This document shows positions 16,126-56,537 of a DNA stretch of 64,000 nucleotides, piece after piece. The notes below the pieces were generated by a model, which was not told the DNA's origin, ran no database searches, and saw only the letters and a program-made list of their open reading frames with translations. The position numbers were made by a program, and so were the translations under genes. This stretch comes from an uncultured Candidatus Saccharibacteria bacterium (GTDB lineage Bacteria; Patescibacteriota; Minisyncoccia; Phycocordibacterales; CAIZLB01), in the NCBI GenBank assembly GCA_964620475.1, contig CAZUJN010000001.1:4651-68650 (forward strand), written 5' to 3'. Positions within the stretch are counted from its first letter, which is position 1, and each line of letters begins with the position of its first letter.

Positions 16126-16217
16126 TGGCGGAGACGGAGGGATTCGAACCCTCGGGACCCTTTTAAAAGCCCACCTCTTTAGCAAAGAGGCACATTCGAC
16201 CACTCTGACACGTCTCC
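16126..16217 (-). tRNA. tRNA-Ser (anticodon GCU), CCA encoded
   Basis: Reverse complement reads GGAGACGTGTCAGAGTGGTCGAA...CCTCT-TTGCTAA-AGAGG...long variable arm...GGGTTCGAATCCCTCCGTCTCCGCCA; 92 nt. Confidence 0.85.
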
Positions 16218-16320: not shown

Positions 16321-16512
16321 ATGGAATTATTTGGACTAGGAGTACCTGAAATCACTTTAATATTAGTAGTCTTTCTGGTTTTTTTTGGAAAAGACAAACT
16401 TCCTGAACTTGCAAGGAGTATAGGAACATCTTTCAAAGAACTTAAGAAAGGTTTTAGTACAGAAGCTGACTCAAAAGAAAAGACTGATGACAATACAAAA
16501 AAATCAAAATAG
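16321..16512 (+). CDS. tatA: Sec-independent (twin-arginine) translocase protein TatA/E
   Basis: MELFGLGVPEITLILVVFLVFFGKDKLPELARSIGTSFKELKKG is the TatA signature. Confidence 0.9.
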   Translation: MELFGLGVPEITLILVVFLVFFGKDKLPELARSIGTSFKELKKGFSTEADSKEKTDDNTKKSK

Positions 16513-17221
16513 TGATTTGAGTATATTGGAGCATATTATAGAACTTAGGAATAGAATAATTCTATGCGTGCTAGTTATTATTATTGGTTCAGCTATCGCT
16601 CATTTTTTTCATGAACAAATTATTAGTTTTATTTTAAAACCTATCGATGGGCAAAAACTTGTATTCCTTTCCCCTCTTGATCCTTTATTTTTTATTTTGA
16701 AAATTGATTTAGTAGTTGGAATTTTAATATCATTACCTATTATAGTTTGGTCTGTATTTTCATATATAAAACCGATTATAACAAATAAGCTCAACTATTT
16801 GATACATGTTATATATTTATCATCAACCTTATTAGTTTTGACGGCTCTTGGTTATGCATATTTTATAATAGTACCGCTTATATTAAAGTTTTTATCATCA
16901 ATCACAATCCCTGGAATAGAAAGTGCTATTACAGCTCAAAACTATCTTAGTTTTTTTATTACACAAATACTCATAATCACACTTGTATTTCAAATTCCTT
17001 TATTTATTATTCTTGGAATTTATATAGGAGTTTTTAATACAAGATTATTGGGCTCAAAACGAGGTTATATATATGTTGGTATGACTATAGTACTTTCAAT
17101 ACTAACACCGACACCAGACATATTTAGTCTTGGTATTATTCTAATTCCCGCTTTATTTATATTTGAAATAAGTTTAATTATAGGTAGAATTGTAGAGAAA
17201 TTTAAGAAGAAGAAAATTTAG
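16487..17221 (+). CDS. tatC: Twin-arginine translocase subunit TatC
   Basis: 244 aa, six TM helices, LEHIIELRNR start typical of TatC; overlaps tatA end. Confidence 0.85.
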   Translation: MTIQKNQNSDLSILEHIIELRNRIILCVLVIIIGSAIAHFFHEQIISFILKPIDGQKLVFLSPLDPLFFILKIDLVVGILISLPIIVWSVFSYIKPIITNKLNYLIHVIYLSSTLLVLTALGYAYFIIVPLILKFLSSITIPGIESAITAQNYLSFFITQILIITLVFQIPLFIILGIYIGVFNTRLLGSKRGYIYVGMTIVLSILTPTPDIFSLGIILIPALFIFEISLIIGRIVEKFKKKKI

Positions 17222-17299
17222 ACCCAAACCACGCGAACAAAAAAAACAGCACTTACTCGAAGTGTTGTTTTTTTATTATTGATGAGACCTTGTTTATAA

Positions 17300-19234
17300 T
17301 TATCTACCAATAGCTGCCAAGAATGTATCAACCCGAGCTTTAAATGCAACAATTTCATCTGTTGTAAGCGTTGAACCCGCTGCTGCTATTTTCAAGTTTG
17401 CATTACTATAGTTCAATGTAGTTCCGTTTCCGTTCAATGCCAACAAAAACAGATTGTGTGTTGACCTCCCTGTTGGAACAGAAGCATAACTGTTTGTCCA
17501 AGCATTATGACCTGCCAGTGTGGTTGTTCCGTTAGTTATGTTTACATATGAATGTCCCGCAAAGTTTGATACCGGTTGTGTAAACGTTGAACCTGTATTA
17601 TTCTCGTTAGCTCTAAATCGTATGTATTCAGTTCCACCTGGCTTATAACTATCAATAATCGAACGAGCAACACCGTTAGTCACCGCCCCTATAAATACAC
17701 CATTATCGGTTGGATCAACTGTACCATTTTTTAGATAAATAAACTGATCGTTTGTCCCACCAAAATCTGATGGCTTAAGTCCTGTATTACCGTAGGCATC
17801 TGTACCGTTACCTGTCACACCATTCGCGTCGTGTGTTGGGTTACCGGACCAAGTTATGTTATAAACACCTTTCAAATCCTTGCTTTGTGTTGTTCCCGTT
17901 GTTCCTTCAAATGTCCATATAGCAGCCAGCTTTGACCAGAGCCCGTCAGTTTTAAGTCCTGTAACAAAGTTATTGTATGCTGTCTGTCTTGCTGGATCCG
18001 TAACACTTGCAGCAGAAATAAATGCTGCAGCATCAGAATCAACTGCACCAGTGTAATTTAGATTGGCTTTCCAATAAATATAACTACCGTCATAATACCA
18101 TTCTAGAATATCTACAGCATCCGGAGCAGAAGATAAAGTTATAATACCGTTTCCGCCGTTAGGTGTTTTACTTCCACCTGGTAGAGTTAATGTCCTTGAA
18201 CCGTTTGAGTCTTGTGTCACGATCAATTTTCCACTCATCCCCTCTATCAATCCACTGAATGTCAAAGTTCTATTTCCTCCAAGTGTCACTTTGGCATTTT
18301 GACTATTATGAAATTTAGTTACTACCCAAGTTATAACAATGTCATCTGTTAGTGTTTGAAATGATGGATTAGTACCATTTGACCAGACACCTCTCTTACT
18401 GAAAGTAACCATATCAGCACCAGTAATCACACCGTTAGTAGTATTGTAACCACCATTTGCACCAGTAACTGTTCCTTTATGAAAGAATCTTAACTCTGTG
18501 TCATCACCTGATTGGTCAACAGGTACTGCTTGCCACTGAATACTGTTATCAACTTCGATCAACCGTGTTGCTGTTCCTGTTCCGCTTCCTGCACCTGTTG
18601 CAACGAATCTAACCCCGACAGTGTTTGATGATGCACCGATCGCGGTGAAATCAGTTGTACCTATAGTTTTGATTATGTAAGTGTATGGTGTTGGTGGTGC
18701 AAAAACAAAACTACCAGCATTAACCGGAGAACCGGTCTCCACAAGCGACTTCGTCTGCATCGATATAGCTTTTGAAGTCTTTTTAGGGTCGGTCACACTA
18801 GTCGCACCAGACACCATATGCAAATAGTTAGCATCACGAACGGAAGCGTTGTTACCAAACTGAACAGGTCCAGGAGCGATGATAGCCATACGCCAAGCCA
18901 AGTTAAAGATTAACTCACCGCCGACACCATCGTGACCTTCCCACATATAGATGTTGGTACCGGGTGCTCCTGTTCTTGTCAACCAAGTTATACCTTGCAT
19001 ATCAGGTATGTATATATTACCCACACCACCGAAAGCAGCTGAGTTTTCTGGGTTAGTCCAATCACCTGTTATCAAATTCCCATCTGCATTAAATTGTGGT
19101 ACCTTTAATGAACCTCCGTTTTGAGAAATATCAAATTTAAGGGTACCGTCTGTGTTATGTGATACCGATAAATATTCATTTAGTATTCCTCCCCATGTTC
19201 CTGAATCATCTCCTACATTAGGTAGTCTTGGCAT
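17300..19234 (-). CDS. Gly/Thr/Asn-rich beta-rich protein, phage tail-fibre / receptor-binding-like; compositionally atypical (markedly higher GC than surroundings); no signal peptide
   Basis: 644 aa; GC visibly ~40+% vs ~28% background; repetitive TGT/NGT beta-strand motifs; C-terminal ...TTDEIVAFKARVDTFLAAIGR. Confidence 0.4.
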   Translation of the reverse strand: MPRLPNVGDDSGTWGGILNEYLSVSHNTDGTLKFDISQNGGSLKVPQFNADGNLITGDWTNPENSAAFGGVGNIYIPDMQGITWLTRTGAPGTNIYMWEGHDGVGGELIFNLAWRMAIIAPGPVQFGNNASVRDANYLHMVSGATSVTDPKKTSKAISMQTKSLVETGSPVNAGSFVFAPPTPYTYIIKTIGTTDFTAIGASSNTVGVRFVATGAGSGTGTATRLIEVDNSIQWQAVPVDQSGDDTELRFFHKGTVTGANGGYNTTNGVITGADMVTFSKRGVWSNGTNPSFQTLTDDIVITWVVTKFHNSQNAKVTLGGNRTLTFSGLIEGMSGKLIVTQDSNGSRTLTLPGGSKTPNGGNGIITLSSAPDAVDILEWYYDGSYIYWKANLNYTGAVDSDAAAFISAASVTDPARQTAYNNFVTGLKTDGLWSKLAAIWTFEGTTGTTQSKDLKGVYNITWSGNPTHDANGVTGNGTDAYGNTGLKPSDFGGTNDQFIYLKNGTVDPTDNGVFIGAVTNGVARSIIDSYKPGGTEYIRFRANENNTGSTFTQPVSNFAGHSYVNITNGTTTLAGHNAWTNSYASVPTGRSTHNLFLLALNGNGTTLNYSNANLKIAAAGSTLTTDEIVAFKARVDTFLAAIGR

Positions 19235-19486
19235 TTTTTGTGTTTTTTAAATTTAAATTAATATTTACTAATTATCTTAATAATACTTTATATTAAACCC
19301 TAAGGCAAACTTGTTTGCTCTGAAAATATATACCGTGATATACTTTTTATATGTTAGACAAAAAAATCACTCGAAAACAATTTATTTTATCCGGACTTTC
19401 ACTTTTTGGAATACTTTTGATGAATAAAATACCTAAAAACATTGTTACTAACAATAAAACAAATAACTCTTATGGGGTAAGTACAT

Positions 19487-20584
19487 ATGGTGGTAAATAA
19501 TTTTTTAAAAGTCTTTTTTATATCTCTTTGTTTTACAATATCTTTACCTGTATTTGCCGACACTTACGGGGAGGGTTTATATGGATCAGGTAGATATTCT
19601 GGAGACAATTCGACAACAACAGTACCGAATGCACCAACATCTGTTATTGCTACCGCTGGGAATTCTCAAGCAAGTATATCTTTTACACCACCAGCAAATA
19701 ATGGAGGGGCAGCTATAACATCTTACATCGTTACATCTTCACCTGGTAACACAACTGCAACAGGTCTAACCTCACCCATTATTGTCACAGGACTTACAAA
19801 TGGCACATCTTATACTTTTACAATAGTAGCAATAAACTCTGTAGGAACATCGTCACCTTCAGCTGCATCAAACAGCATCATACCCATTGTTCCATCCAAC
19901 ACACAGTCAAATAATTCAAGTTACGGTGGTGGCGGTAGTACATCTGGATCATCTTACAATGTTGCAACAAACGCTCCAACAACACCAGTAGTAGTTGATC
20001 AAACCGTTAATCAGGTGACACAAAACACACAAAACAATTTATCTATTTTTAATTCAAACCTAACATTTGGTGCAATAAGTACCGAGATTCAAAACCTACA
20101 AAAGTTTTTGAATAAAAACGGATTCACAATATCATCATCAGGACCTGGATCTATTGGAAATGAAACAAATAAATTTGGACCTGCAACAAAAGCAGCATTA
20201 ATAAAGTTCCAAATAGCTAATAAGATATCACCTGCAATTGGATATTTTGGACCTATTACACGAGCATTAGTAAATTCTATATTGGAATTGGATTTAAACC
20301 TTAAAAAACCAACAGATACACAGAGTACAACAGCACCTTTATATACAAGAGATTTGGATTTAAACACATTAGGTGATGATGTTAAAGCATTACAACAGTT
20401 TCTAAATAAAGAAGGTTTTCTTGTATCAATATCAGGACCTGGATCTATTGGAAATGAAACAAATAAATTTGGACCTGCAACAAAAGCAGCATTAATAAAG
20501 TTCCAAATAGCTAATAAGATATCACCTGCAATTGGATATTTTGGACCTATCACTAGATCTGTTGTAATAAATAAATCAAAATAA
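19487..20584 (+). CDS. Secreted protein: signal peptide + fibronectin type III domain + two tandem peptidoglycan-binding (PGBD-like) repeats
   Basis: FN3-like PNAPTSVIATAGNSQASISFTPP...GGAAITSYIV; two near-identical units ...LQKFLNKNGF...GPATKAALIKFQIANKISPAIGYFGPITR. Confidence 0.65.
   Translation: MVVNNFLKVFFISLCFTISLPVFADTYGEGLYGSGRYSGDNSTTTVPNAPTSVIATAGNSQASISFTPPANNGGAAITSYIVTSSPGNTTATGLTSPIIVTGLTNGTSYTFTIVAINSVGTSSPSAASNSIIPIVPSNTQSNNSSYGGGGSTSGSSYNVATNAPTTPVVVDQTVNQVTQNTQNNLSIFNSNLTFGAISTEIQNLQKFLNKNGFTISSSGPGSIGNETNKFGPATKAALIKFQIANKISPAIGYFGPITRALVNSILELDLNLKKPTDTQSTTAPLYTRDLDLNTLGDDVKALQQFLNKEGFLVSISGPGSIGNETNKFGPATKAALIKFQIANKISPAIGYFGPITRSVVINKSK
20140..20555. repeat. Internal tandem repeat: ~119-bp identical core (20140-20258 and 20437-20555), period ~297 bp, encoding duplicated PG-binding domain
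   Basis: Identical protein segments SGPGSIGNETNKFGPATKAALIKFQIANKISPAIGYFGPI in two copies; minus-strand shadow ORF also duplicated. Confidence 0.8.
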
Positions 20585-21002: not shown

Positions 21003-22175
21003 ATGGAAAATTTATTTTATGAAATAGGACAAACCTGCGGAATGATAGGTTTTGTTCTTCTGACATTATTAATATTCTCAGGTGATACAGCTCGTTTTTG
21101 GAATAGATATATAGGATTAGATAAGATTATAAAATTTCAAAGAAAATTCTCTTATTTTGTAATGTTCTTTGTCTTTTTTCATCCAATATTCTTTATGTTG
21201 TCAACCGGAACATACAAAGGTTTTATAGTTCCTGACTTTGCATATCTGCCACTTGCTATAGGTATTATTGCTTTCTATATATTAGTAGGTGTAATGATAG
21301 CATCTGCATTATATAAACGTATCTCATATAGAGTTTGGCAATATATACATGTCGTAACTTATATATTATTCTTCTTTGCATTATTCCATGCGGTACTTTG
21401 GGGATCAGAAACTGCCGAAAATATGCCTATATACATATTGGCCACATTACTTGTGACAGTAGGTATTGTATATAGAACAAGATATAAAATTATAGCAGCT
21501 AGAACAACAAGGTTTTTTGTGAAAGATGTAAAAATGGAAACAGCCGACACTTTCACTGTTACCATTAAAGGTAATAAGGAATTTCAGGCCGGACAATTTT
21601 GTTTTCTAAGACTTAATAAAAACAAACTTTATGCAAGACATCCTTTTACCATATCCTCTGCTCCAGGTGATGATTTTGCATTTACTATCAAGCTCGCTGG
21701 AAGATTTACACAAACAGCTAAAGAATTAAAAGAAGGTGATGAAATATTTATAGACGGACCTTTTGGAAAATTCATACCACAGCCTAACAAAAATCTAGTA
21801 TTTATAGCTGGTGGGGTTGGTATAACACCTTTTATGAGTATACTTCGTGATCATATAAAAAGAGGTGTGTCACAAAACATAACTTTGATATATGGATCGA
21901 GATCACAAGCGGATATCATTTTCAAAGATGAAATAGAATCGATCAATCAGCCTTGGTTTAAAAAAGTTTACATGTTAAATGATATAAGTAATATGACAAT
22001 ACAATGTGAACAAGGTTATATATCACAAGATATAATCAAAAAATATGTAACTAATCCAAATGATTCACTATACTATATATGTGGCCCAGAAAGAATGAAA
22101 GATACAGCTAAAAAAGTTTTAAAAGACATGGGTGTTAAGTGGAGAAATGTTTTCGTCGAGGATTTCTTCTGGTAG
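21003..22175 (+). CDS. NOX/ferric-reductase-family flavocytochrome (6-TM bis-heme ferric reductase domain + FAD-binding HPFT motif + NAD(P)H-binding domain)
   Basis: 390 aa; paired His 13 residues apart in TM helices (HVVTYILFFFALFH); HPFTISS FAD motif; GGVGITPF NAD(P)-binding motif. Confidence 0.75.
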   Translation: MENLFYEIGQTCGMIGFVLLTLLIFSGDTARFWNRYIGLDKIIKFQRKFSYFVMFFVFFHPIFFMLSTGTYKGFIVPDFAYLPLAIGIIAFYILVGVMIASALYKRISYRVWQYIHVVTYILFFFALFHAVLWGSETAENMPIYILATLLVTVGIVYRTRYKIIAARTTRFFVKDVKMETADTFTVTIKGNKEFQAGQFCFLRLNKNKLYARHPFTISSAPGDDFAFTIKLAGRFTQTAKELKEGDEIFIDGPFGKFIPQPNKNLVFIAGGVGITPFMSILRDHIKRGVSQNITLIYGSRSQADIIFKDEIESINQPWFKKVYMLNDISNMTIQCEQGYISQDIIKKYVTNPNDSLYYICGPERMKDTAKKVLKDMGVKWRNVFVEDFFW

Positions 22176-22183
22176 AATGAATG

Positions 22184-22274
22184 GCGGAAAAGTGCTAGAG
22201 AGGTTGAATAGGTCGCTCTCGAAAAGCGATATGGAGGAAACTCCATCGAGGGTTCGAATCCCTCCTTTTCCGCT
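22184..22274 (+). tRNA. tRNA-Ser (anticodon CGA) with long variable arm
   Basis: GCGGAAA acceptor / D-arm GTGCTAGAGAGG / anticodon stem-loop TCGCT-CTCGAAA-AGCGA / variable arm TATGGAGGAAACTCCATC / T-arm GAGGGTTCGAATCCCTC / TTTCCGC. Confidence 0.8.
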
Positions 22275-22393
22275 ATTTTTACAAAAATCTAGAATCAAAA
22301 AATCCGTAGGATTTTTGGGATTCGAAAAGGTTTTATGTATTTTCGAGAATTTGAAAAATTTAAGAAAATATAAAACCTATACTGACCTCGTAG

Positions 22394-22416
22394 AGGTCGA
22401 ATCCCTCCTTTTCCGC
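22394..22416 (+). repeat. Direct repeat: truncated copy of the 3' end of tRNA-Ser(CGA) (gaggtcgaatccctccttttccgc), 120 bp downstream of the intact tRNA; att-site-like scar
   Basis: 19-nt exact match cgaatccctccttttccgc plus flanking near-match to tRNA T-arm/acceptor. Confidence 0.7.
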
Positions 22417-22917: not shown

Positions 22918-22953
22918 AGGACCGCCTCCCCTATGATGGGGTGGCGGTTTTTT
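22918..22953. terminator. GC-rich bidirectional terminator (accgcctcccc-tatga-tggggtggcggt + T7)
   Basis: Strong hairpin with T-run; overlaps the stop of the convergent minus-strand gene. Confidence 0.65.
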
Positions 22954-23503
22954 TCTTGCCGTATCGAGGAACAAGATTGCCGACTTGTGTTGAGATAAAA
23001 TTTTCAGTAACTTCATCATGTTTGGCTAATTGAAATTCCATCTTAACTCCAAGAGTAAGAACTTTAGGAAAGAAATACACGCGAGCTCTTCCACGCAAAA
23101 TCGCAGATTGATTGTCGAACTCAGGTATCTCCCTAAGTCGACTCATGATTTCTTTTACAGAAGATTTGTTTATACCCTGTATCTTATGCATGGCGGTCTC
23201 CGACAATATAGCCAACTGCCACAGACTATGAAAACCTGCAGACTGAAGAGTTTTGTTAACCCGTGAAGGGAAATTAAACCACAACAAAGAATCGAACAAA
23301 TGATCATCCAGAGTGGACAGACTCATTGCCTTGTCCAAGGTTGTACGCTTACCTTTTTTGGTTACACTGAATTCAACCTTGGCATCGCCGGTAGCGTCAG
23401 TCTTTATCCTTTTGATAGCAAGCTCATATCCAGGATTTAGATCTCCGGCAAGATAAACCGCGATCAGATTATTAAACACATGGTTTGGAATTGTTCTTTT
23501 CAT
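22931..23503 (-). CDS. Hypothetical protein, compositionally atypical (higher GC); possible helix-hairpin-helix DNA-binding segment; start uncertain (ORF-track start 23572, likelier Met at ~23503)
   Basis: LSETAMHKIQGINKSSVKEIMSRL resembles an HhH motif; no confident family assignment. Confidence 0.35.
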   Translation of the reverse strand: MKRTIPNHVFNNLIAVYLAGDLNPGYELAIKRIKTDATGDAKVEFSVTKKGKRTTLDKAMSLSTLDDHLFDSLLWFNFPSRVNKTLQSAGFHSLWQLAILSETAMHKIQGINKSSVKEIMSRLREIPEFDNQSAILRGRARVYFFPKVLTLGVKMEFQLAKHDEVTENFISTQVGNLVPRYGKKKTATPS

Positions 23504-23558
23504 ATAAGGGTGTGAATGTGCTACACATAAAAATACCACACCCTCACACAAAATCAAC

Positions 23559-24725
23559 CTACACCTTAACACTCATAGCCACTTTCTTCATCACCCTTTT
23601 ATCAAAAGGTTTTGGTATAACGTAGTCTGCTTTTAATTCTTTTTTATTTATCAAACTTGCCAATGCATAAGCTGCCTTTATTTTCATATCATCAGTTATA
23701 CTTTTTACACCAGCATCAAGTGCGCCACGAAATATTCCAGGAAATACAAGCACGTTATTAATCTGATTTGGATAATCAGATCTACCTGTGGCAAATATTT
23801 TTATGTCTGCTTTTTTTGCATTTTCAAAACTTATTTCTGGATTTGGATTAGCCATAGCAAATACTATTCTATTTTCATTCATGGTTTTAACCCATTCTAC
23901 TTTCAAGACATCAGCCTTTGACACACCTATAAACACATCAGCGTTCTTCAAAGCATTTTCTAATCCTCCTTTTATATTTTCTTTATTTGTTATTTCAGCT
24001 AATTCTAATTTATATTTATTTAAATCAGTTCTATCTTTATTCAAAGTATCCACAGAATCTAAGACAATCATCTTATTTGGATTCACTCCAGCTTTTATTA
24101 AAAGTTTTGCTATAGCTAATGCTGCCGCCCCTGCCCCGTTTATAACTATTTTTATATTTTTCAAATCTTTCTTAACCAACTTGAGCGAGTTTATAAGCCC
24201 AGCTAAAACTACTATAGCTGTTCCATGCTGATCATCATGAAATACTGGTATATCGAGTTCTTTCTTTAATCTCTCTTCTATCTCAAAACATCTTGGAGCA
24301 GATATATCTTCTAGATTTATACCACCGAAGACCGGAGCTATGTTTTTTATAGTTTTAATTATTTCTTCTGTATCTTGTGTATTTAAACATATTGGAAATG
24401 CATCTATGTTTGCAAAATTTTTAAACAAAACAGCTTTACCTTCCATAACCGGTATAGCAGCTTCTGGACCAATATTTCCAAGTCCGAGCACCGCTGAACC
24501 GTCCGAGATCACCGCAACAGTGTTAGCTTTTATGGTATGAGTATATACAGACTTTTTATCTTGATGTATAAGACGACATACTTCTGCAACACCTGGAGTA
24601 TATGCTACCGATAAATCTTCTTTGTTTTTAGTCTTTACTTTTGAGACAACCTCAAGTTTACCTTTATGTTTTTTGTGTAGACCTAGGGATAATTTTTTGT
24701 AGTTTTTTGAAGATTTTGTGGGCAT
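23559..24725 (-). CDS. NAD(P)-dependent malic enzyme (short form)
   Basis: LSVAYTPGVAEVC, dinucleotide-binding VINGAGAAALAIAKLL, 388 aa. Confidence 0.85.
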   Translation of the reverse strand: MPTKSSKNYKKLSLGLHKKHKGKLEVVSKVKTKNKEDLSVAYTPGVAEVCRLIHQDKKSVYTHTIKANTVAVISDGSAVLGLGNIGPEAAIPVMEGKAVLFKNFANIDAFPICLNTQDTEEIIKTIKNIAPVFGGINLEDISAPRCFEIEERLKKELDIPVFHDDQHGTAIVVLAGLINSLKLVKKDLKNIKIVINGAGAAALAIAKLLIKAGVNPNKMIVLDSVDTLNKDRTDLNKYKLELAEITNKENIKGGLENALKNADVFIGVSKADVLKVEWVKTMNENRIVFAMANPNPEISFENAKKADIKIFATGRSDYPNQINNVLVFPGIFRGALDAGVKSITDDMKIKAAYALASLINKKELKADYVIPKPFDKRVMKKVAMSVKV

Positions 24726-27805: not shown

Positions 27806-27881
27806 TGGTGCAAGCACTAGGATTCGAACCTAGGACCGGTCGTGTATAAGACGACTGCTCTACCAACTGAGCTATGCTTGC
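27806..27881 (-). tRNA. tRNA with anticodon UAU as read (tRNA-Ile2-type), CCA encoded
   Basis: Reverse complement GCAAGCATAGCTCAGTTGGTAGAGCA-GTCGT-CTTATAC-ACGAC-CGGTC-CTAGGTTCGAATCCTAG-TGCTTGCACCA; 76 nt. Confidence 0.65.
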
Positions 27882-30238: not shown

Positions 30239-31357
30239 ATGGCTATAATACAGAACAAAAAGGCTTATCATAACTATGAAATACTTGAAAAGATAGAGAC
30301 AGGTATGATTCTTTTAGGTTTTGAAGTTAAGGCTATAAGATCAGGTCAAATGACATTAGATGGTTCATACATAAAGATAGGTAAACATGACAGAGTTTTT
30401 TTGATAGGTGCCAATATAAAACCATTACAACAAGAAAATATTCCTGATTCATATTCGGAAACAAGAGATAGAGAATTACTGTTGACAAAAAAAGAAATAA
30501 AGCACCTAAAACAAAAGACTGAGACAATTGGTAATACTTTGATACCAATTTCCGTATATAATAAAGAGGGTTTGATAAAACTCGAGATAGCTCTCGCTCG
30601 TGGTAAGAAAAAACATGATAAAAGAGAAAGTATTAAAAAAAGAGAGGCCAACATAGAAATAAACAGAATGTTACATCACAAATCAAAATTCATATTTTTA
30701 CTATTAATATCAAGCCTGTTTGGTCTTTCAAACACAGTTGATGCAAAAGTATTATTAAAAGTTCCTTATTATCAACAACAATACACAAACAGTTGTGAAG
30801 CCGCTGCTACAAAAATGGTATTAGAATATCATGGTATTTATCTAGATGAAGATGAGATATTAAAATCTTTCAACTATAATCCCAGACAAAAAGATACAAC
30901 AAATAATGTATGGGATGATCCAAATGAAATGTTTGTTGGTTTTGTTGATAAAAAAGGACCAGAAAATGGATATGGTGTTTATGGCCCGGCGGTGGTTAAA
31001 GGTATAAAAAAGTTTGAGGTAGATGCAACACATCATGCAAGCTCAAGTATAAACCTGAAACTTATTGCACAAAGTATAAAAGATGATAAACCAGTTATAT
31101 TCTGGGGTTATACTTCCCTAACACAAAAACCATACACATGGAAAACAGAATCCGGTAAAACCATTAAGGCTTTTAGAGGTGAGCATGCACGTGTGGTGGT
31201 TGGTTTTGAAGGTACAGTAAATAACCCAACAGGATTTTATGTACATGACCCCATAAACGGTAAGAAAAACGAGTATTGGTCTAAAAATAAACTATTAACA
31301 AACCTGACTGCGGTACCAGATGTTACTGATCAATTGGTTATAATAGATTCAGATTAA
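30239..31357 (+). CDS. smpB: SsrA-binding protein SmpB (aa 1-~145) continuing in-frame, with no stop, into a signal-peptide/TM segment plus C39-like cysteine peptidase (Peptidase_C39_2/YvpB-like) domain; either a fusion or two genes (second start at ATG ~30665)
   Basis: N-terminus IIQNKKAYHNYEILEKIETGMILLGFEVKAIRSG is canonical SmpB; downstream MLHHKSKFIFLLLISSLFGLSNTVDA looks like a signal peptide; YYQQQYTNSCEAAATKMVLEYHG is a C39-like catalytic Cys motif. Confidence 0.75.
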   Translation: MAIIQNKKAYHNYEILEKIETGMILLGFEVKAIRSGQMTLDGSYIKIGKHDRVFLIGANIKPLQQENIPDSYSETRDRELLLTKKEIKHLKQKTETIGNTLIPISVYNKEGLIKLEIALARGKKKHDKRESIKKREANIEINRMLHHKSKFIFLLLISSLFGLSNTVDAKVLLKVPYYQQQYTNSCEAAATKMVLEYHGIYLDEDEILKSFNYNPRQKDTTNNVWDDPNEMFVGFVDKKGPENGYGVYGPAVVKGIKKFEVDATHHASSSINLKLIAQSIKDDKPVIFWGYTSLTQKPYTWKTESGKTIKAFRGEHARVVVGFEGTVNNPTGFYVHDPINGKKNEYWSKNKLLTNLTAVPDVTDQLVIIDSD

Positions 31358-31404: not shown

Positions 31405-31791
31405 GGGGATGACCGGATTCGATATATAGAACTTTGACATGTATGCGTAATAGAGTATTCTCAAATCTCTTAAAACTTTGAGGAACCTTAAGTGCACAAG
31501 CACAAAAAGCTGTTGTATCGCCTTTCGCGTTCAACATGTCTTTCGCAACTGCTAGAGCATAACCTCTAGTCGCGCATCTTACTTTTATCTACTTTGTGTA
31601 AAAGATAGGGTGTAATATAGCAAAGTTGGATTAAGGTAGTAATCTTGATCCTTAATCGAGATAAAAGATTATATTATATGATGTTTCGATATATATTTTG
31701 AGTCATATAATGAATTTTAAAAATATATCTATATTACGTAGAGTTACATGTTTAAACTATATAGACGTGGGTTCGACTCCCACCATCTCCA
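31405..31791 (+). ncRNA. ssrA: tmRNA (ssrA), ~387 nt, immediately downstream of smpB
   Basis: 5' end GGGGATGACCGGATTCGA (cf. GGGGcTGAttctGGATTCGAC) and 3' tRNA-like end GTGGGTTCGACTCCCACCATCTCCACA pairing with the 5' GGGGATG to form the acceptor stem; candidate tag frame ...AFNMSFATARA-stop ending at 31562. Confidence 0.75.
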
Positions 31792-31796
31792 CATCA

Positions 31797-36759: not shown

Positions 36760-37428
36760 TTAATTTTGAACAACTGTCACTTTTATGCCCACAGACACAA
36801 GACGAAACAATTGAACACCAGCGGGTTCAGACACCCTGATACAACCACGGGATGCAAAGGACAGGTCACCACAATGGATGTATATACCGCGATCTTTAGA
36901 TACAAGTAACGCTTTGGGCATTCTTGCACCTTTGATTTCACGAGATACATGTAGGGACTCCTTGTCGGAAATGGTATAATCTCCTGCACTGATCTGCCTG
37001 TGTTCACCCTCTCTCTCTGAGGTTTGGCAGCGAACCCTACCCATGATTTCACCTTTACCAAAACAGATGATTTCACCTTTTCCGTTGGTATCAAAGGAGA
37101 TTTTAAGGGTGTCAATCGCTGCACCGACAACAAAAAAGCTTGATTTTGTCGACATTGCCTTTGTCACAAGGTTTTTATCAACCTTCCACAGAAACTCTGC
37201 GAAGGTCTCTTTGTCGACCATTTCCTGGAGATCCAGTTTATCAACCTTACCCCAGTTCTTTTGGAGGATAGAGACAACAGCCTCTTTGGAATATTTTCCC
37301 TTGTCCTTTCCGGACCACCCCCACTCAGCTTCATCGCCACCAAAAGTGGAAACTTGTGCAAAACAAGAAGAGGCAAAGGCGGCAAAAAACATGAGAAAAG
37401 CGAACAGAAGTTTTTGAGATGTGTTCAT
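36760..37428 (-). CDS. Secreted L,D-transpeptidase (YkuD-fold) domain protein; GC-rich relative to genome
   Basis: Signal peptide; catalytic motif IYIHCGDLSFASRGCIRVSEPAG (His...Cys of L,D-TPase). Confidence 0.65.
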   Translation of the reverse strand: MNTSQKLLFAFLMFFAAFASSCFAQVSTFGGDEAEWGWSGKDKGKYSKEAVVSILQKNWGKVDKLDLQEMVDKETFAEFLWKVDKNLVTKAMSTKSSFFVVGAAIDTLKISFDTNGKGEIICFGKGEIMGRVRCQTSEREGEHRQISAGDYTISDKESLHVSREIKGARMPKALLVSKDRGIYIHCGDLSFASRGCIRVSEPAGVQLFRLVSVGIKVTVVQN

Positions 37429-37592: not shown

Positions 37593-38054
37593 TCAATTGA
37601 GTCCAGGTTGGTACCTGGTTATTGCAAAACCACCAGGTTGACCGAAGCTAGAAGGCCTTAGGCTGCACCCTTGCTGAGAGTACAAACCCTGTGCGGCACT
37701 AGTCAGCTGACCCTGAGAAGGCCACCTTCCTGTGCGACGAAACACCCCCTCGGCATAATCTTCAAGCCCTGCCCTTACGTTGTTGGTGGCACCTTGTGGA
37801 GCATCGCCCGAAACCTCAATATAGGCACGGCGGTTCACGGTGTGGGCTTGGCGGGTATAACCGCTAACTTGAGGTTCACCCCCGCCATACGGGTTATACC
37901 CGCGGTAGGGGTTGTAACCCATATATTGTTGAGGGCCCTGGAAACCAGGATATGGAGGTTGTGCACCCACCGGACCATATTGGATCGGCGGCACACATGA
38001 AGTGGTGATGAAGGCAAACAGAGAGACGGCGATAGAGGAGACGATGGTTTTCAT
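37593..38054 (-). CDS. Secreted/lipoprotein-like Pro/Gly/Tyr/Gln-rich protein; GC-rich relative to genome
   Basis: Signal peptide with possible lipobox (ITTSC); no catalytic motif. Confidence 0.4.
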   Translation of the reverse strand: MKTIVSSIAVSLFAFITTSCVPPIQYGPVGAQPPYPGFQGPQQYMGYNPYRGYNPYGGGEPQVSGYTRQAHTVNRRAYIEVSGDAPQGATNNVRAGLEDYAEGVFRRTGRWPSQGQLTSAAQGLYSQQGCSLRPSSFGQPGGFAITRYQPGLN

Positions 38055-48816: not shown

Positions 48817-50130
48817 TTAGATTTCGTATTTCCACAAACTTAAAGAGTTTTTATCTTGAAACAATAAGTATTTGTTTGTATTTGATATTTTAATTTTATA
48901 TATATCTATGGAATTACTTACCATGTCTTGTAATGGAATTATTAATTTAAACTCACCGTTTACTGGATTTATTGACCAGATATTATCTGTAAATTCTATA
49001 TTATTTTTATACCAAGCCTCTGGGTAAGGTGCTTGATATAGTTTTTGTGGTATACCACAGAAAATAAGTTTAGAGTCGTTTGACCAAACACATTTATCTA
49101 CTATTGTTGCCTGTGATAAATATGTGTTTGTTTTTGATTTTATATCATAAATAAACGTTTCCAATGTGTTATTTATTATTTCATTATATATAACCTTTTT
49201 ACCATCAGGAGATACTAATGTATTAAATCCATACTTCTCACCTATTATATAAGTGTTTTTACCTTTACCATCAGGGTTTAAAAAGAATAAATACCCAGGA
49301 AAATAAGCACTTGGTTTTGTTGTTAAAGCTATTGTTGTTTTGTTTACATATTGAGATAACCACTCTGATAATACAGTATTTAATACATTTGTTCTTACTC
49401 CACCATCAAAACTAGATAATACACCTGTACCGGTATTATTTATAAAATAAAACAACCTTTTTGTTTCTTTTGATAAAGATAAGTTTGATGAACTTATATT
49501 AATATTACCCACATTTGCATTATATAAAGTTGAGGTTGCTGTATCTTTTATTAGTTTTAAATATGTTGTTGATATTGTCTCGTTGTCATCAGAAACCTTT
49601 CTGATTATTGCTGATATATTGTCTATAAACAAAACTTCTTCTGCCCCTATGAGTGTGAAGTAGGATAGCTTGTTTAAATCTGTTGTAGAGGCCAAATTTT
49701 CGTAAATATTACCTGTTTTCCTATCCCATAAGTATATGAATTCTTGATTCTTATAAATTTTTTTGTTTTTTATAGCCTGAATTACACTTGTTGTGGAATT
49801 ATTTGTGGAGGTAGCGACTTCTTCTATATCTTTATAAACAAAATCAAAACCACTAACAGGTTCTTTCCATATTTGTACTAATTTAGTTTTTGTTGTGTTA
49901 GTTGTTGGATTTTCTACAGATTTTTCATCACCTTCTTGTACATCATTTGACTGTGTTGATGTTGAGACTCTGGTTTGAAAAGGTGTTCTTGTTGGGTTTG
50001 TGTTTGTAACAGTGTTGTAATCAGATAAGTCACCTTGTGACACTTTATAGAATTTATATCCAAAATAAACTCCAAGACCAAATATGATTATAATTAATAT
50101 TATTATTGTTTTTTTGATTATATTTTGCAT
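48817..50130 (-). CDS. Membrane-anchored (N-terminal TM) beta-propeller-like protein (TolB-like PDGK repeats); last gene of the T4SS-like locus
   Basis: 437 aa; N-terminal TM IIILIIIIFGLGVYFGY; repeated ...PDGKxxxY... motifs. Confidence 0.4.
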   Translation of the reverse strand: MQNIIKKTIIILIIIIFGLGVYFGYKFYKVSQGDLSDYNTVTNTNPTRTPFQTRVSTSTQSNDVQEGDEKSVENPTTNTTKTKLVQIWKEPVSGFDFVYKDIEEVATSTNNSTTSVIQAIKNKKIYKNQEFIYLWDRKTGNIYENLASTTDLNKLSYFTLIGAEEVLFIDNISAIIRKVSDDNETISTTYLKLIKDTATSTLYNANVGNINISSSNLSLSKETKRLFYFINNTGTGVLSSFDGGVRTNVLNTVLSEWLSQYVNKTTIALTTKPSAYFPGYLFFLNPDGKGKNTYIIGEKYGFNTLVSPDGKKVIYNEIINNTLETFIYDIKSKTNTYLSQATIVDKCVWSNDSKLIFCGIPQKLYQAPYPEAWYKNNIEFTDNIWSINPVNGEFKLIIPLQDMVSNSIDIYKIKISNTNKYLLFQDKNSLSLWKYEI

Positions 50131-50147
50131 TTTATGTTTTTATTATA

Positions 50148-51341
50148 TTATGGATTTGAAATCTGCGCCCTTGCGGTTCCAAATGTTATATTCCATTGAC
50201 CGGCCGGTATGTTCTTTAAGACACTATTACTACCTATTGTTCCGTTTTCATCGTATATGTCTATTGTATTTGCAAACATTATTCCGTTATAAGAAGAGGC
50301 TGTTGCGTCTTCATAAAAACCAACACATGTTCCGTTTATAAAAACAGCTTGACCTGTTGATGGTCTGTATTTTGATATTAAATCAGGTGAAAGAGCTACT
50401 GAACCTTCTCTTAATAAATTATTTGCATTACCTCTTCTTTGTGCTGTGTTTGAATCCGTAATCGAATCTTTTGTTGCACTATACACAGTAACAACAAGTC
50501 TACCATCTGTTGATCTTACTCCGTTTGGTAAGCTTCTTATAAAATTTTCAGCACCAGATTCGGTCCAGCCAAAAACTGAGTTAAACATTGGGTTGTCTGT
50601 AGGGTTTCCTGTGTAAGGTATATTAGGTATTCCGTTGTTTGGAAAACTCCACCCAGGATTTTGATTTAAAACAGCATCTATACCACTAATGTTCCCTACC
50701 CAACTTGATGTTGCTACTGTTAAAACCTGATTTATACCTTTTTGTATTGATTTATCTACATCTATCTCAGATGGATTAAAATCAAACTCAACAAGCTTTT
50801 TATTAACTGTATACAATATTGTGTATGACAACAGACCTAAACCTAAAGCAATGAAACTGTTTGTTAATCTCTTCTTGGCCGCACCTTTTTTACCTACAGC
50901 TTCCTCTGTCATGTATTGTATACCTGATACAGCTATACTTATTACTGTTAACATTATTATTACAGTTATACCAACAGTAAAAAGCATTTTAACTATATCT
51001 TCTGTAGCGTTTGATACATTAACACAGGTTACATTTGGATTCTGTTTACTTTTTGTTAAAGATGAACCTATACCAGGAAAAGAGGTGTCTATACCTGAAA
51101 AAGGTTGATATTGCTTATCTTTTACATAATTACAATCTTTAGATGTAAACAACATTTGAACCAAAGTTTTTTGTTGTTCTGGTGCTGTTGGTGTTATGGA
51201 TGATCCTGGTGTTGTGGCAGGTTGAAGATTTGCAACACCACCTGGAATATTGGTGTTTGTTGGAAGATTAACAGCCGCTGAAACAGATATTGTTGTTAAA
51301 AATATTAGTATATATACTAGAGTGAATAATTTTTTATTCAT
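50148..51341 (-). CDS. Cell-wall hydrolase paralogue A: shared N-terminal module (signal peptide + two TM helices) + C-terminal 3D/MltA-like (Asp-rich double-psi beta-barrel) domain
   Basis: N-terminal 233 aa identical to next gene; C-terminal VALSPDLISKYRPSTGQAVFINGTCVGFYEDATASSYNGIMFANTIDIYDENG resembles 3D-domain motif. Confidence 0.55.
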   Translation of the reverse strand: MNKKLFTLVYILIFLTTISVSAAVNLPTNTNIPGGVANLQPATTPGSSITPTAPEQQKTLVQMLFTSKDCNYVKDKQYQPFSGIDTSFPGIGSSLTKSKQNPNVTCVNVSNATEDIVKMLFTVGITVIIMLTVISIAVSGIQYMTEEAVGKKGAAKKRLTNSFIALGLGLLSYTILYTVNKKLVEFDFNPSEIDVDKSIQKGINQVLTVATSSWVGNISGIDAVLNQNPGWSFPNNGIPNIPYTGNPTDNPMFNSVFGWTESGAENFIRSLPNGVRSTDGRLVVTVYSATKDSITDSNTAQRRGNANNLLREGSVALSPDLISKYRPSTGQAVFINGTCVGFYEDATASSYNGIMFANTIDIYDENGTIGSNSVLKNIPAGQWNITFGTARAQISNP

Positions 51342-51342
51342 A
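50641..51342. repeat. Copy 1 of ~702-bp direct repeat (identical 5' gene module)
   Basis: Identical translations in two frames (main ORF and shadow ORFs 50821..51108 / 52109..52396) imply nucleotide identity. Confidence 0.85.
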
Positions 51343-51378
51343 TCTAGATTATATCAAATTATTATGAGAGTTTGTATT

Positions 51379-52629
51379 TTATACTTTCTGACAAGATCTA
51401 TAAACATAAGTTTGTAGTCTCTTTTGTAGGTTATAATAACTAAACCACGATTGTGGTGTGAAGTGATCATCAACCATAGCCTGAGATGAACTGTTTGAAA
51501 CTATTTTACCTGTGCTTGTGTATATACCAACATGACCATGATTTGTTCCAACTGTTGGTGAGATTATTATATCTCCTGGTGTTGCTGCTGAAGGGTCTTG
51601 GCTCACCATACAAAAATAAATACTTGATGATAATGCATTGTTCATATCTATGGTGCTTTTTCCGTATGTATCCTCATCTCTTGTTATTGGCATACCCAAA
51701 GCTTTGTTTATAATATCATTCACAACAAAAGCACAAGCTAAAGCGCCACCAGATGTACCAGTATAATTACATGTCTTTGTACCAAGCATGTCTAAGGCCT
51801 CTTGATTTATTCTTTGGGCTGCCAATGTGTTTATTGATCCAGAACCAAAACCTGCTGTTGGTATTCCTCCTGAAAATGGATTGTTCGGGTTGGTTATTGA
51901 ACCTGGTGTTGTCGGTAAACCTCCTGAAGGAAAACTCCACCCAGGATTTTGATTTAAAACAGCATCTATACCACTAATGTTCCCTACCCAACTTGATGTT
52001 GCTACTGTTAAAACCTGATTTATACCTTTTTGTATTGATTTATCTACATCTATCTCAGATGGATTAAAATCAAACTCAACAAGCTTTTTATTAACTGTAT
52101 ACAATATTGTGTATGACAACAGACCTAAACCTAAAGCAATGAAACTGTTTGTTAATCTCTTCTTGGCCGCACCTTTTTTACCTACAGCTTCCTCTGTCAT
52201 GTATTGTATACCTGATACAGCTATACTTATTACTGTTAACATTATTATTACAGTTATACCAACAGTAAAAAGCATTTTAACTATATCTTCTGTAGCGTTT
52301 GATACATTAACACAGGTTACATTTGGATTCTGTTTACTTTTTGTTAAAGATGAACCTATACCAGGAAAAGAGGTGTCTATACCTGAAAAAGGTTGATATT
52401 GCTTATCTTTTACATAATTACAATCTTTAGATGTAAACAACATTTGAACCAAAGTTTTTTGTTGTTCTGGTGCTGTTGGTGTTATGGATGATCCTGGTGT
52501 TGTGGCAGGTTGAAGATTTGCAACACCACCTGGAATATTGGTGTTTGTTGGAAGATTAACAGCCGCTGAAACAGATATTGTTGTTAAAAATATTAGTATA
52601 TATACTAGAGTGAATAATTTTTTATTCAT
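51379..52629 (-). CDS. Cell-wall hydrolase paralogue B: shared N-terminal module + C-terminal CHAP (Cys/His-dependent amidohydrolase/peptidase) domain; VirB1/PrgK-like function inferred
   Basis: C-terminal TGTSGGALACAFVV...GDIIIS...GHVGIYTSTG is a CHAP-domain pattern (catalytic Cys then His). Confidence 0.6.
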   Translation of the reverse strand: MNKKLFTLVYILIFLTTISVSAAVNLPTNTNIPGGVANLQPATTPGSSITPTAPEQQKTLVQMLFTSKDCNYVKDKQYQPFSGIDTSFPGIGSSLTKSKQNPNVTCVNVSNATEDIVKMLFTVGITVIIMLTVISIAVSGIQYMTEEAVGKKGAAKKRLTNSFIALGLGLLSYTILYTVNKKLVEFDFNPSEIDVDKSIQKGINQVLTVATSSWVGNISGIDAVLNQNPGWSFPSGGLPTTPGSITNPNNPFSGGIPTAGFGSGSINTLAAQRINQEALDMLGTKTCNYTGTSGGALACAFVVNDIINKALGMPITRDEDTYGKSTIDMNNALSSSIYFCMVSQDPSAATPGDIIISPTVGTNHGHVGIYTSTGKIVSNSSSQAMVDDHFTPQSWFSYYNLQKRLQTYVYRSCQKV

Positions 52630-52630
52630 A
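51929..52630. repeat. Copy 2 of ~702-bp direct repeat
   Basis: See copy 1; 586-bp unique spacer between copies. Confidence 0.85.
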
Positions 52631-52633
52631 TTC

Positions 52634-53635
52634 TTATTTGTTTGTGTCTATGATATACAATATGTCTTTTGATTGTAGTATTGAGTTTTGGTTTTTTATT
52701 TTTATAGAAAGTTTAGATAATTCATCATCCTTCTTTTTTCTAAAAGATAACTCATTTGATGAATTTTTTATTTGTACATCATTTATATACCAACTATATA
52801 TTGTTGCTAAAGTTGAGTTTATTCCATAATAGAATGGATATGATACTATGGTTGCTTCGTTTTTACTTAATCTAAATTGAGGCTTGATTGTTTTGTTGAA
52901 TAATATTCCTAATAAAGGACTTTTTTCATAACTAATAATTTCTGTATCTAATGTTGGTATTCTTAATATAGCCTCATTGTTGTATGTTTTTGTTACAGTA
53001 TCTTTGTATGAATTTAATGCTGAAACAACCACACTAAATAAAGGCTCTTTTTTTAAGATATCACCTTTGTATGAAAAAGATGAATAACCAGCACCCGAAA
53101 CACTTCCTTTAACAACACCATCAACGCTCCACTTATAATTATTATATGTGTTTGTTAAAGGATTTTCTTGATCAAGGTTTATGGCATTTAGAATAATAGA
53201 TGATTCTGGTGTATACATTGATTTTCCTTTATAAAAAGGTGGTGTATAAGTTCTTGATTCCCATATTAATATAATTTTTTTAGGATCAAATACGAATTGT
53301 TTTTGTATTTTTGAACCATAATTTGTTGTAATCTCTAAATCAACCGTACTTTTTTTATCCAACACAAAATTTATTTTATTTAAACCCACACCAGATTTAA
53401 ATGATTTGTTGTTGATTTTCCAATCAAAAGCGGAATCAGAAATATTTGTACCATACATTTCTGCTGATATTGTGATTGTGTCACCTATGTTTGGTCTTTC
53501 TGGGTAAATATTAAAATATGTTTTCTCTTCTAATTCTGAAAAGTTTTCGGGCCCTGTTGCAGCATATGTATTTGAGGTTAAAAAATAGAAAAAAACTATT
53601 ATAAATATAAGTATAGATTTATAATTTAAATTCAT
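52634..53635 (-). CDS. Secreted hypothetical protein of the T4SS-like locus
   Basis: 333 aa; signal peptide SILIFIIVFFYFLTSNTYA; beta-rich. Confidence 0.4.
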   Translation of the reverse strand: MNLNYKSILIFIIVFFYFLTSNTYAATGPENFSELEEKTYFNIYPERPNIGDTITISAEMYGTNISDSAFDWKINNKSFKSGVGLNKINFVLDKKSTVDLEITTNYGSKIQKQFVFDPKKIILIWESRTYTPPFYKGKSMYTPESSIILNAINLDQENPLTNTYNNYKWSVDGVVKGSVSGAGYSSFSYKGDILKKEPLFSVVVSALNSYKDTVTKTYNNEAILRIPTLDTEIISYEKSPLLGILFNKTIKPQFRLSKNEATIVSYPFYYGINSTLATIYSWYINDVQIKNSSNELSFRKKKDDELSKLSIKIKNQNSILQSKDILYIIDTNK

Positions 53636-53654
53636 AAATTAATTATAACAGACT

Positions 53655-54029
53655 TTAATCTGAATAATAAGTAAAAAACACATTTGCTGTTATACAAGGT
53701 AGATTTCCTATAACTGGTATACCCTCCCCTAATGCAGTAAACGCCATTGATGTTATTTTTGTTAAATCACTAACTTTTAAAATACCAGAAAAAGCAAACC
53801 AAGGTATAAAAATTACTAAACTTAATATAGAGAATGCTATACCAACACCCGGAATCTCACTTAAAAAGAAACTAAACAAATCTAAAACAACAGCAACTAA
53901 AACCATACATATAAAATTTAATGTCACCCCTTTTTTTAAAAGGTTTTGACCTGCATTTACTGCTTGGGTTGCTTTGTTTGCTGGGTTTAATCTCTCTACC
54001 CTGCTTGGTGTTGCTAATTGTGTAGCCAT
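53655..54029 (-). CDS. Small membrane protein with two hydrophobic helices (VirB2/VirB3-like candidate)
   Basis: 124 aa; overlaps VirB4 stop by 16 nt; no motif. Confidence 0.35.
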   Translation of the reverse strand: MATQLATPSRVERLNPANKATQAVNAGQNLLKKGVTLNFICMVLVAVVLDLFSFFLSEIPGVGIAFSILSLVIFIPWFAFSGILKVSDLTKITSMAFTALGEGIPVIGNLPCITANVFFTYYSD

Positions 54030-55837: not shown

Positions 55838-55847
55838 AATGTATATA

Positions 55848-56465: not shown

Positions 56466-56537
56466 GGGCGACTAGAGAGAATCGAACTCTCGATACAGGA
56501 TCCACAAACCTGAGTTTTGCCACTAAACTATAGTCGC
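56466..56537 (-). tRNA. tRNA-His (anticodon GUG) with genomically encoded G-1 opposite C73; CCA not encoded
   Basis: Reverse complement G-GCGACTA-TA-GTTT-AGTGGCA-AAAC-T-CAGGT-TTGTGGA-TCCTG-TATC-GAGAG-TTCGATT-CTCTC-TAGTCGC-C; one U-U mismatch at 31:39. Confidence 0.8.

Follow-up and report, generated by a model that had tools for sequence, protein, structure and literature searches.

The stretch of DNA analysed in the present study, 64 kb in length and hereafter called the window, is chromosomal DNA of low GC content (~31%) from a member of the Patescibacteria. Its genes include those for ribosomal proteins, dnaA/dnaN, ruvBC, recG and smpB as well as a tmRNA gene, and its best protein relatives are found in Patescibacteria MAGs labelled variously as Saccharibacteria, Parcubacteria and Nomurabacteria. 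To our knowledge, the mobile elements of these ultra-small bacteria are poorly known. Integration into tRNA genes is in itself a textbook matter, and the elements we know of that integrate there are kilobase-sized and bring their own integrase.

At the locus under study, an intact tRNA-Ser(CGA) gene ends in ...CCGC followed by TA, without an encoded CCA, and its 3' end recurs a short distance downstream. The features concerned are as follows.

22186..22273, plus strand: tRNA-Ser(CGA) gene, intact (ARAGORN; Rfam RF00005 at 22186..22272, 55.2 bits)
22254..22273, plus strand: proximal repeat (attL-type core), exact 20-mer TCGAATCCCTCCTTTTCCGC, 0 expected by chance
22397..22416, plus strand: distal repeat (attR-type core), tRNA 3' end in displaced or duplicated form; host flank from 22417 onwards
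22274..22416, plus strand: candidate miniature element of 143 bp, delimited by comparing the insertion with an empty site (equivalent description 22254..22396)

The proximal repeat comprises the T-loop, the 3' strand of the T-stem, the 3' strand of the acceptor stem, the discriminator and C74. The two copies of TCGAATCCCTCCTTTTCCGC are identical and in direct orientation, and the spacer between them measures 123 bp (22274..22396), which bears out the ~120 bp given by the sequence-only reading of this DNA. That reading had also recognised the intact tRNA gene and the copy of its 3' end, both of which are real; its bounds for the gene (22184..22274), however, give way to those of ARAGORN, the exact repeat is 20 nt instead of 19 nt, and the additional 'gagg' of its 24-nt version is only a gapped, partial match to the T-stem. 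In shuffled sequences the expected number of repeat matches was 0.00, even with up to three mismatches allowed, and the sole other near-match to the 20-mer in the window is the 3' end of tRNA-Ser(GCT) (16128..16147, minus strand). No further tRNA or tmRNA fragments were found in the 64-kb window. It also holds that the downstream repeat lies outside any second tRNA, ARAGORN finding none there and Rfam nothing at E<=1. Likewise, the covariance models of Rfam 15 gave no family match to 22274..22416 at E<=1, and the lone low-end match was a chance-level plastid motif sitting on tRNA-Ser(CGA) itself. The same arrangement of tRNA and repeat is present in three independent assemblies (L001, L002 and L008, where L denotes a related locus), and it is therefore no assembly artefact.

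As a separate observation, the tRNA leader and the first bases after the gene (22180-22192 with 22265-22277) lengthen the acceptor stem to 13 pairs (AATGGCGGAAAAG / CTTTTCCGCTATT). This extension is absent from L003 and may be a coincidence.

The inserted unit and its relatives

Homologues of the ferric-reductase-like gene that lies just 5' of tRNA-Ser(CGA) served to retrieve the loci of relatives. In L007 (96% protein identity) the tRNA at the CGA site is joined directly to TTTGTAAATAAAATGTTAAAATAC, that is, to the flank of the window from 22417 (AGTATAAATAAAATGTTAAAATATAC), and L007 thus lacks exactly one repeat plus the spacer. In L008 (95% protein identity) the same site is filled and 99% identical to the window. 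Identical or near-identical units are carried by L001, L002 and L008, the contig of L002 beginning inside the unit and retaining only its 3' part. Homologous, diverged fillings occupy the CGA site in L003, L047, L046, L005 and L006 (90-75% protein identity), and further empty CGA sites appear in L043/L023 when compared with the filled L005.

The 143-bp unit contains no ORF. Terminal inverted repeats are absent, as its ends read TATTTTTAC... and ...GAGGTCGAATCC and its only inverted pair is the internal P1. It can be divided into the following parts.

22274..22297, plus strand: left arm, type 'a' (TATTTTTACAAAAATCTAGAATC...), a variable module
22298..22316, plus strand: hairpin H1, AAAAATCC GTA GGATTTTT, abutting P1 (minimum-free-energy fold)
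22317..22323, plus strand: P1 5' strand GGGATTC, reverse complement of T-loop/T-stem GAATCCC (RNAalifold)
22324..22329, plus strand: junction GAAAAG (AAAAG invariant in 13/13 copies)
22330..22376, plus strand: P2, long bulged hairpin of 18 pairs (covariation, 13-copy alignment)
22377..22383, plus strand: junction J2/3, TATACTG in the window (invariant alignment columns; the conserved ACYGA reaches the first two bases of P3)
22384..22398, plus strand: P3, GACCTC GTA GAGGTC (covariation)
22399..22405, plus strand: P1 3' strand GAATCCC, within the distal repeat (RNAalifold, covariation)

We collected 13 distinct related copies, all of them from one Patescibacteria clade, and every one lies at the 3' end of a tRNA-Ser(CGA), tRNA-Ser(GCT) or tmRNA gene, always in the orientation of its host gene. 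The second and third targets are unoccupied in the window.

16126..16217, minus strand: tRNA-Ser(GCT) gene, second target, unoccupied in the window, with 3' flank CAAGTCGAG... (ARAGORN)
31405..31792, plus strand: tmRNA gene, third target, unoccupied in the window (occupied in L080)

Copies at the GCT site are those of L007, L010, L013, L077/L078 and L081, and the two at the tmRNA site are both in L080. In L007 the filled GCT site shows a 21-nt repeat and then CAAGTCGAG, whereas in the window, L008 and L080 the site is empty and the tRNA runs directly into CAAGTCGAG; a second pair of this kind is formed by L013 (filled) and L011 (empty). The tight clade of the window, L007 and L008 therefore has the CGA site occupied and the GCT site empty on the one hand, and the reverse in L007 on the other, with a different variant of the element. 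This switch of site and variant is recent turnover. Occupied GCT genes lose their encoded CCA, because the insertion point lies after C74. A covariance model of the junction found one copy in the 64-kb window and no copy away from tRNA-Ser or tmRNA 3' ends in 351 kb + 78 kb of related DNA, and none turned up in other lineages that share this 3' half of the tRNA.

The family comes in short forms (143-185 bp), in which the junction runs straight into a repeat of 20-21 nt, and long forms (~220-310 bp), in which ~75-115 nt with an extra hairpin stand between TCGAATCCC and a 12-nt repeat, CTCCxxxxCCGC. The bases at the right end before TCGAA vary (GAGG, AGCT, AACT, ATGT). Where a copy is intact, the acceptor portion of its distal repeat agrees with the host gene, namely TTTTCC at CGA, GTCTCC at GCT and ATCTCC at tmRNA genes. 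In the long-type copies at the GCT sites of L010 (CTCCGTCTCCAC) and L081 (CTCCATCTCCAC), the distal repeat shows one or two changes from G to A, which may reflect decay or imperfect matching to the host. A transposon-style target duplication is disfavoured, since the repeat is 20-21 nt in short forms and 12 nt in long ones and terminal inverted repeats are missing.

Several loci hold tandem or truncated copies (a full copy plus an arm remnant in L077, two copies in L080, a truncated one in L046), as expected from repeated integration into a regenerated tRNA-type gene. The second tmRNA-site copy (L080:18369-19232) has an arm of ~730 nt with an orphan ORF of 123 aa and a T-arm-like fragment, GTAGGTTCAAGCCC (~18917-18930), so the family can carry extra DNA. 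The 123-aa ORF gave no Pfam match and no homologue among 5.8 billion proteins, and it is hence uninformative.

At least six unrelated types of left arm exist, and the types of arm, P2 and P3 are reassorted in ways that contradict the host tree. The window, for instance, has the P2 of L005 (92.8% identical in 69 nt, where the adjoining gene reaches 73%), and L003, a nearer relative than L005, has the P2 of the GCT-site copy of L007. Such reassortment of modules points to exchange among element lineages and not to simple vertical decay.

A 20-mer, TACGACATATTAAAAA(T/A)ACC, was additionally observed 3' of tRNA-Ser in several contexts (L043:2507-2560, L023:1383-1440, L005:11522-11560, and, on the minus strand, L007:7360-7439 and L010:7390-7468). 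It flanks a CGA site that appears to be empty, follows the element of L005 and opens the element arm at GCT sites; it is either what remains of an arm on its own or a native trailer that the element has captured.

The fold and its covariation

All of the 13 copies share one layout: H1, P1, the GAAAAG junction, P2, the junction containing ACYGA, and P3 abutting the 3' strand of P1. RNAalifold predicts a three-way junction of P1, P2 and P3; the folded core common to the copies is ~115 nt long, and the fold of the window copy has a z-score of -4.8. Across the 13 sequences 94.8% of cells are paired and 17 of the 31 pairs have changed on both sides; none of 500 shuffles reached the observed covariation values, and controls with slid partners were paired in at most 57%. 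Covariation was also computed on a nine-sequence MAFFT alignment. By helix, P2 has both-side changes at 11 of its 18 pairs (95.2% of cells paired) and P3 at four of its six (97.4%), the four inner pairs of P3 being those that covary. The closing GA..TC of P3 hardly varies (G.T replaces G-C in a single copy), and the P3 loop is GTA in 12 copies and ATA in the remaining one. The H1 hairpin is present in 13/13 copies, in at least seven unrelated sequences. The uniformity of this ~115-nt core across lineages and targets implies selection on the small unit itself.

Pairs of the G.U type number 14 on the tRNA-sense strand, against three of the A.C type, and the sense strand is therefore the folding strand. 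This bias speaks for RNA or for the top strand of the DNA.

The 3' strand of P1 is the T-loop/T-stem segment of the target, and in short forms it is at the same time the start of the distal repeat. P1 reads GGGATTC/GAATCCC at tRNA-Ser sites and GGGAGTT/AACTCCC in both tmRNA-site copies, where it matches TTCAACTCCC of that gene. P1 copies 7-9 bp of the duplex at the target and changes along with it. The long forms keep TTCGAATCCC although it stands outside their terminal repeat. This co-variation of P1 with the target could instead reflect a protein reading the same sequence twice.

In some arms, hairpins resembling terminators stand between the end of the host gene and the junction; one was flagged in L047, and others were recognised by eye in L007, L010 and L080. 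They argue against simple read-through.

Two further ideas about the fold were discarded. A hammerhead ribozyme does not fit, as the junction strands, compared by hand, disagree with the hammerhead core (CUGANGA / GAAA) and Rfam gave no match in the element. Pairing of GAAAAG (22324..22329) with the tail CTTTTC in the manner of an acceptor stem was also rejected, because GAAAAG is unchanged where the tail is GTCTCC (GCT) or ATCTCC (tmRNA).

Neighbouring genes and the search for an enzyme

The sequence-only reading took the GC-atypical genes on both sides of the tRNA for possible remnants of tRNA-targeted mobile DNA and described one of them as tail-fibre-like. Their GC content is indeed raised, though weakly (0.412 in ORF 17300..19234 and 0.405 in ORF 22931..23572, against ~0.31 for the window), and two other ORFs of the window deviate more (36760..37428, 0.441; 37593..38054, 0.545). 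By synteny, both are conserved chromosomal genes, and the proposal of remnants falls. ORF 17300..19234 belongs to a block of TatC, a 644-aa protein (this ORF) and an fn3+PG_binding protein (16487..20584) whose synteny is conserved in distant relatives: together with a cyt-b5 gene it recurs in L077 and L078, and L081 has the pair of TatC and the large protein. The block lies on the 5' side of tRNA-Ser(GCT). As the 644-aa protein has no Pfam and no PHROG match, the tail-fibre label is unsupported. ORF 22931..23572 encodes an RNA_pol_A_CTD-like domain and keeps its position in L001, L002 and L005. The gene content 3' of the element differs between relatives (TrmB and small ORFs in L003, L005 and L006). 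Of the two more deviant ORFs, the one with GC 0.441 has weak YkuD/DUF5675 matches, and the one with GC 0.545 encodes 153 aa without a Pfam or PHROG match.

Between the window and L008, identity is 96-100% over 20.6-23.6 kb with the exception of a 400-bp patch (21773-22172) at 77-88%, which is the 3' end of the ferric-reductase-like gene directly 5' of the tRNA. The patch resembles a recombination tract that stops at the tRNA. The idea that the element is better conserved than its flanks was rejected, given the 96-100% identity throughout apart from this patch.

Pfam scans of 48 ORFs of the window, including every ORF of 130-460 aa, revealed no recombinase, integrase or transposase; the earlier statement that no integrase is present is supported, with no PF00589, Y1_Tnp or TnpB match in the window. 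Nor was a recombinase or transposase (Y1_Tnp and TnpB included) found beside any of the 13 copies. An occupied form with an integrase-bearing island, sought in relatives, was encountered in none of 47 related loci. Three pattern scans of viral contigs returned only phage tRNA genes or chance matches, the covariance model found nothing at 29 candidate viral loci, and in phage and plasmid collections BLAST detected nothing similar to the element. Tandem copies occur in L077 and L080, and no autonomous partner was found in the loci or viral contigs searched.

The large serine recombinases near tRNA-Ser(GCT) in L004, L005 and L080 were considered as the enzyme of the element and rejected, as they belong to separate islands and the GCT site there is without an element copy. 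These islands (Resolvase+Recombinase+Zn_ribbon; L004:1-5950, L005:2400-9440, L080:1-9440) abut the 3' end of tRNA-Ser(GCT) and carry defence-type genes, among them those for a DNA methylase, AAA_13, an OLD-like TOPRIM, SduA_C and a 2086-aa HATPase protein. They are a second, unrelated kind of mobile DNA at the same tRNA end. A flank motif, AGTATCGG(A/T)GTYGACCC, was also noted 3' of the tRNA in L005, L011, L013 and L042.

How the unit may move and what it resembles

Taken together, we consider it probable that 22274..22416 represents a complete member of a family of miniature integrative elements, gene-less and non-autonomous, with a putative folded recombination substrate. Such an element would insert site-specifically into the T-loop-to-3'-end segment of tRNA-Ser(CGA), tRNA-Ser(GCT) and tmRNA genes. 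The 20-nt repeat would be an att-type duplication, of which one copy completes the tRNA and the other represents the displaced end before the host flank. Each element is built from a left arm, which varies, the hairpin H1 and the conserved three-way junction. P1 closes this junction by pairing the T-loop/T-stem sequence of the target, with which the distal repeat begins, to a complement upstream. The signature of a tRNA-targeting integrase, as read from the locus earlier, agrees with the direct repeat from T-loop to 3' end and with the exact empty sites, but no integrase itself was seen. Movement would presumably take place in trans through a site-specific recombinase encoded elsewhere, most likely of the tyrosine type, or, as an option, through cis-mobilisation together with an autonomous relative. 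Empty sites could also stem from deletion between the repeats, and enzymatic excision is putative.

A double-stranded circle of 143 bp is a poor recombination substrate. The enzyme may, as a further option, act on the folded single tRNA-sense strand, with P1 recreating the duplex target core in a manner comparable to integron attC and CTX phage attP. The selection for pairing in H1, P2 and P3 goes beyond what double-stranded protein sites alone can explain and points to a single-stranded intermediate. As to the role of the fold, a folded single-stranded DNA substrate is, roughly judged, possible but less likely than not; a transcribed RNA is a rather doubtful reading, and it is unlikely that the fold has no role in recombination at all. 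A bolder proposal, possible though on the speculative side, holds that the three-way junction is the active substrate or guide of an undescribed gene-less class homing to tRNA-type genes, with its target set by complementarity in P1 and insertion as a folded single strand by a host or trans enzyme. According to this complementarity reading, both T-loop/T-stem strands in P1 would have been rewritten together at the switch from tRNA-Ser to tmRNA, and the inserted strand would be DNA taken up or transferred, or else an RNA.

Among the rival explanations, the one that survives best, quite improbable as it is, sees in the unit a structured RNA or trailer module that serves the host (in processing, in termination or as a small RNA) and was spread and lost by ordinary recombination. 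The strong covariation, the G.U bias on the tRNA-sense strand and the conserved junction bases would all suit such a module, and the constant orientation with the host gene makes co-transcription possible. The element is dispensable, however, close relatives being empty at one site and carrying a different variant at the other; it also occurs in tandem and truncated copies, and it is bounded exactly by repeats of the end of the host gene. Furthermore, since P1 is made from target sequence, the fold is tied to the insertion site. The terminator-like hairpins 5' of the junction in some arms and the lack of a match to any Rfam family also stand against a host module.

Very unlikely, in our view, is the scar of a large integrase-bearing island that was lost or internally deleted, leaving attL and attR 123 bp apart with decaying junk as a spacer. 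The geometry of the repeats is admittedly that of islands in tRNA genes (PMC4383910), and some copies are visibly decayed (the distal repeat of L003, the truncated L046, the second copy of L080). Independent deletions, on the other hand, would not each leave the same 115-nt core, and H1, P1, P2, P3, the invariant junction bases and the compensatory changes are kept in 13/13 copies. No copy holds a gene fragment between the repeats, and none of the 47 related loci shows an occupied form. The suggestion of the sequence-only reading that the short spacer marks an excised or decayed element is hence not upheld: the 143 bp are the conserved unit itself, represented by 13 copies with a covarying core of ~115 nt and without gene remnants. 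Finally, a degenerate tRNA-Ser pseudogene in tandem, or a duplication due to chance or to assembly, to which the stacking of P1 and P3 like an acceptor/T-arm minihelix and the tRNA end in the last 20 nt might lend some colour, is already refuted, as neither ARAGORN nor Rfam sees a tRNA there, the T-loop sequence is paired differently (P1), four independent assemblies have the unit and the chance expectation is 0.

Returning to the miniature element as the preferred reading, its closest parallels are the tyrosine-integrase islands at tRNA and tmRNA genes (the Islander principle; Ms6 at tRNA-Ala). An element that integrates site-specifically into a tRNA gene restores the gene and pushes the original end aside; the displaced 3' fragment serves as a marker of the island end, and attP sites are commonly placed in the T-stem region (PMC4383910). 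In phage Ms6, a core of 26 nt requires 100% identity, and editing of attP retargets integration (PMC1762012). The present unit shares with these islands the intact gene followed by a direct T-loop-to-3'-end fragment, the exact empty sites, the tRNA and tmRNA targets, the tandem arrays and a repeat that matches the target. It differs from them in measuring 143 bp without integrase or cargo, in the absence of any autonomous relative among our finds, and in an interior that is a covarying three-way junction including the core sequence.

The CIMEs of Streptococcus and Streptomyces are devoid of recombination genes and keep both att sites (PMC5704250). Like them, our element sits between att-type repeats at the 3' end of a tRNA, has no genes for recombination or transfer and stands in tandem with relatives; unlike it, CIMEs are heterogeneous, kilobase-scale decay products of ICEs or IMEs, of which no such remnants are seen in the element.

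Folded single-stranded recombination substrates are known from integron attC, the CTX phage and IS200/IS605 (PMC3458562). With attC and the CTX attP(+) sites of XerCD, the element has in common inverted segments that fold so that a helix reproduces the recombinase target, a structure kept while the sequence varies, and strand asymmetry. P1, in contrast, covers only 7-9 bp, there are no R/L boxes and no pattern of extrahelical bases, the target is a tRNA-type gene and not attI or dif, and no IntI- or Xer-type enzyme is linked to the element.

IS200/IS605 elements have subterminal hairpins, insert on the 3' side of a set tetra- or pentanucleotide, make no duplication and encode TnpA/TnpB in their autonomous copies. 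The element has instead a target repeat of 12-21 nt and varying bases at the right end, with neither TnpA nor TnpB nearby. With MITEs, and with PATEs as hairpin-bearing non-autonomous derivatives of IS200/IS605, it has in common that it is small, non-coding, non-autonomous and rich in hairpins. MITEs are marked by terminal inverted repeats, a short target-site duplication of constant length and many dispersed copies; the element, in contrast, has no terminal inverted repeats, occurs as a single copy per locus and is confined to tRNA-type genes.

What appears novel, if the miniature element is correctly read, is that the whole mobile unit would be ~140 bp of non-coding DNA, in which a conserved, covarying fold holds the attachment core and would be retargeted by paired changes. 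This may represent a new mechanism for integration at tRNA-type genes. Should the fold prove to be the substrate, the recombination of folded single strands known from integron cassettes, the CTX phage and IS200/IS605 would be extended to tRNA-type targets. More practically, the covariance model of the junction offers a compact handle for finding the recombinase by co-occurrence, and it could flag short tRNA fragments that island finders discard for want of an integrase.

Some further features of the window deserve mention. The SmpB gene (30239-31357), directly 5' of the tmRNA gene, encodes a protein of 372 aa with a fused C-terminal domain resembling Peptidase_C39, and plain SmpB of 146-147 aa is found in L078 and L080. 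The tRNA-Ile with anticodon TAT (27806-27881) is conserved in the clade and is also seen in L012, L013, L077 and L080, L013 having two facing copies. A cluster at 48817-56465 with weak T4SS pilin, NlpC/P60 and TraC-like matches ends at tRNA-His (56466-56537); it may encode an apparatus for DNA transfer or uptake and be a possible source of single-stranded DNA.
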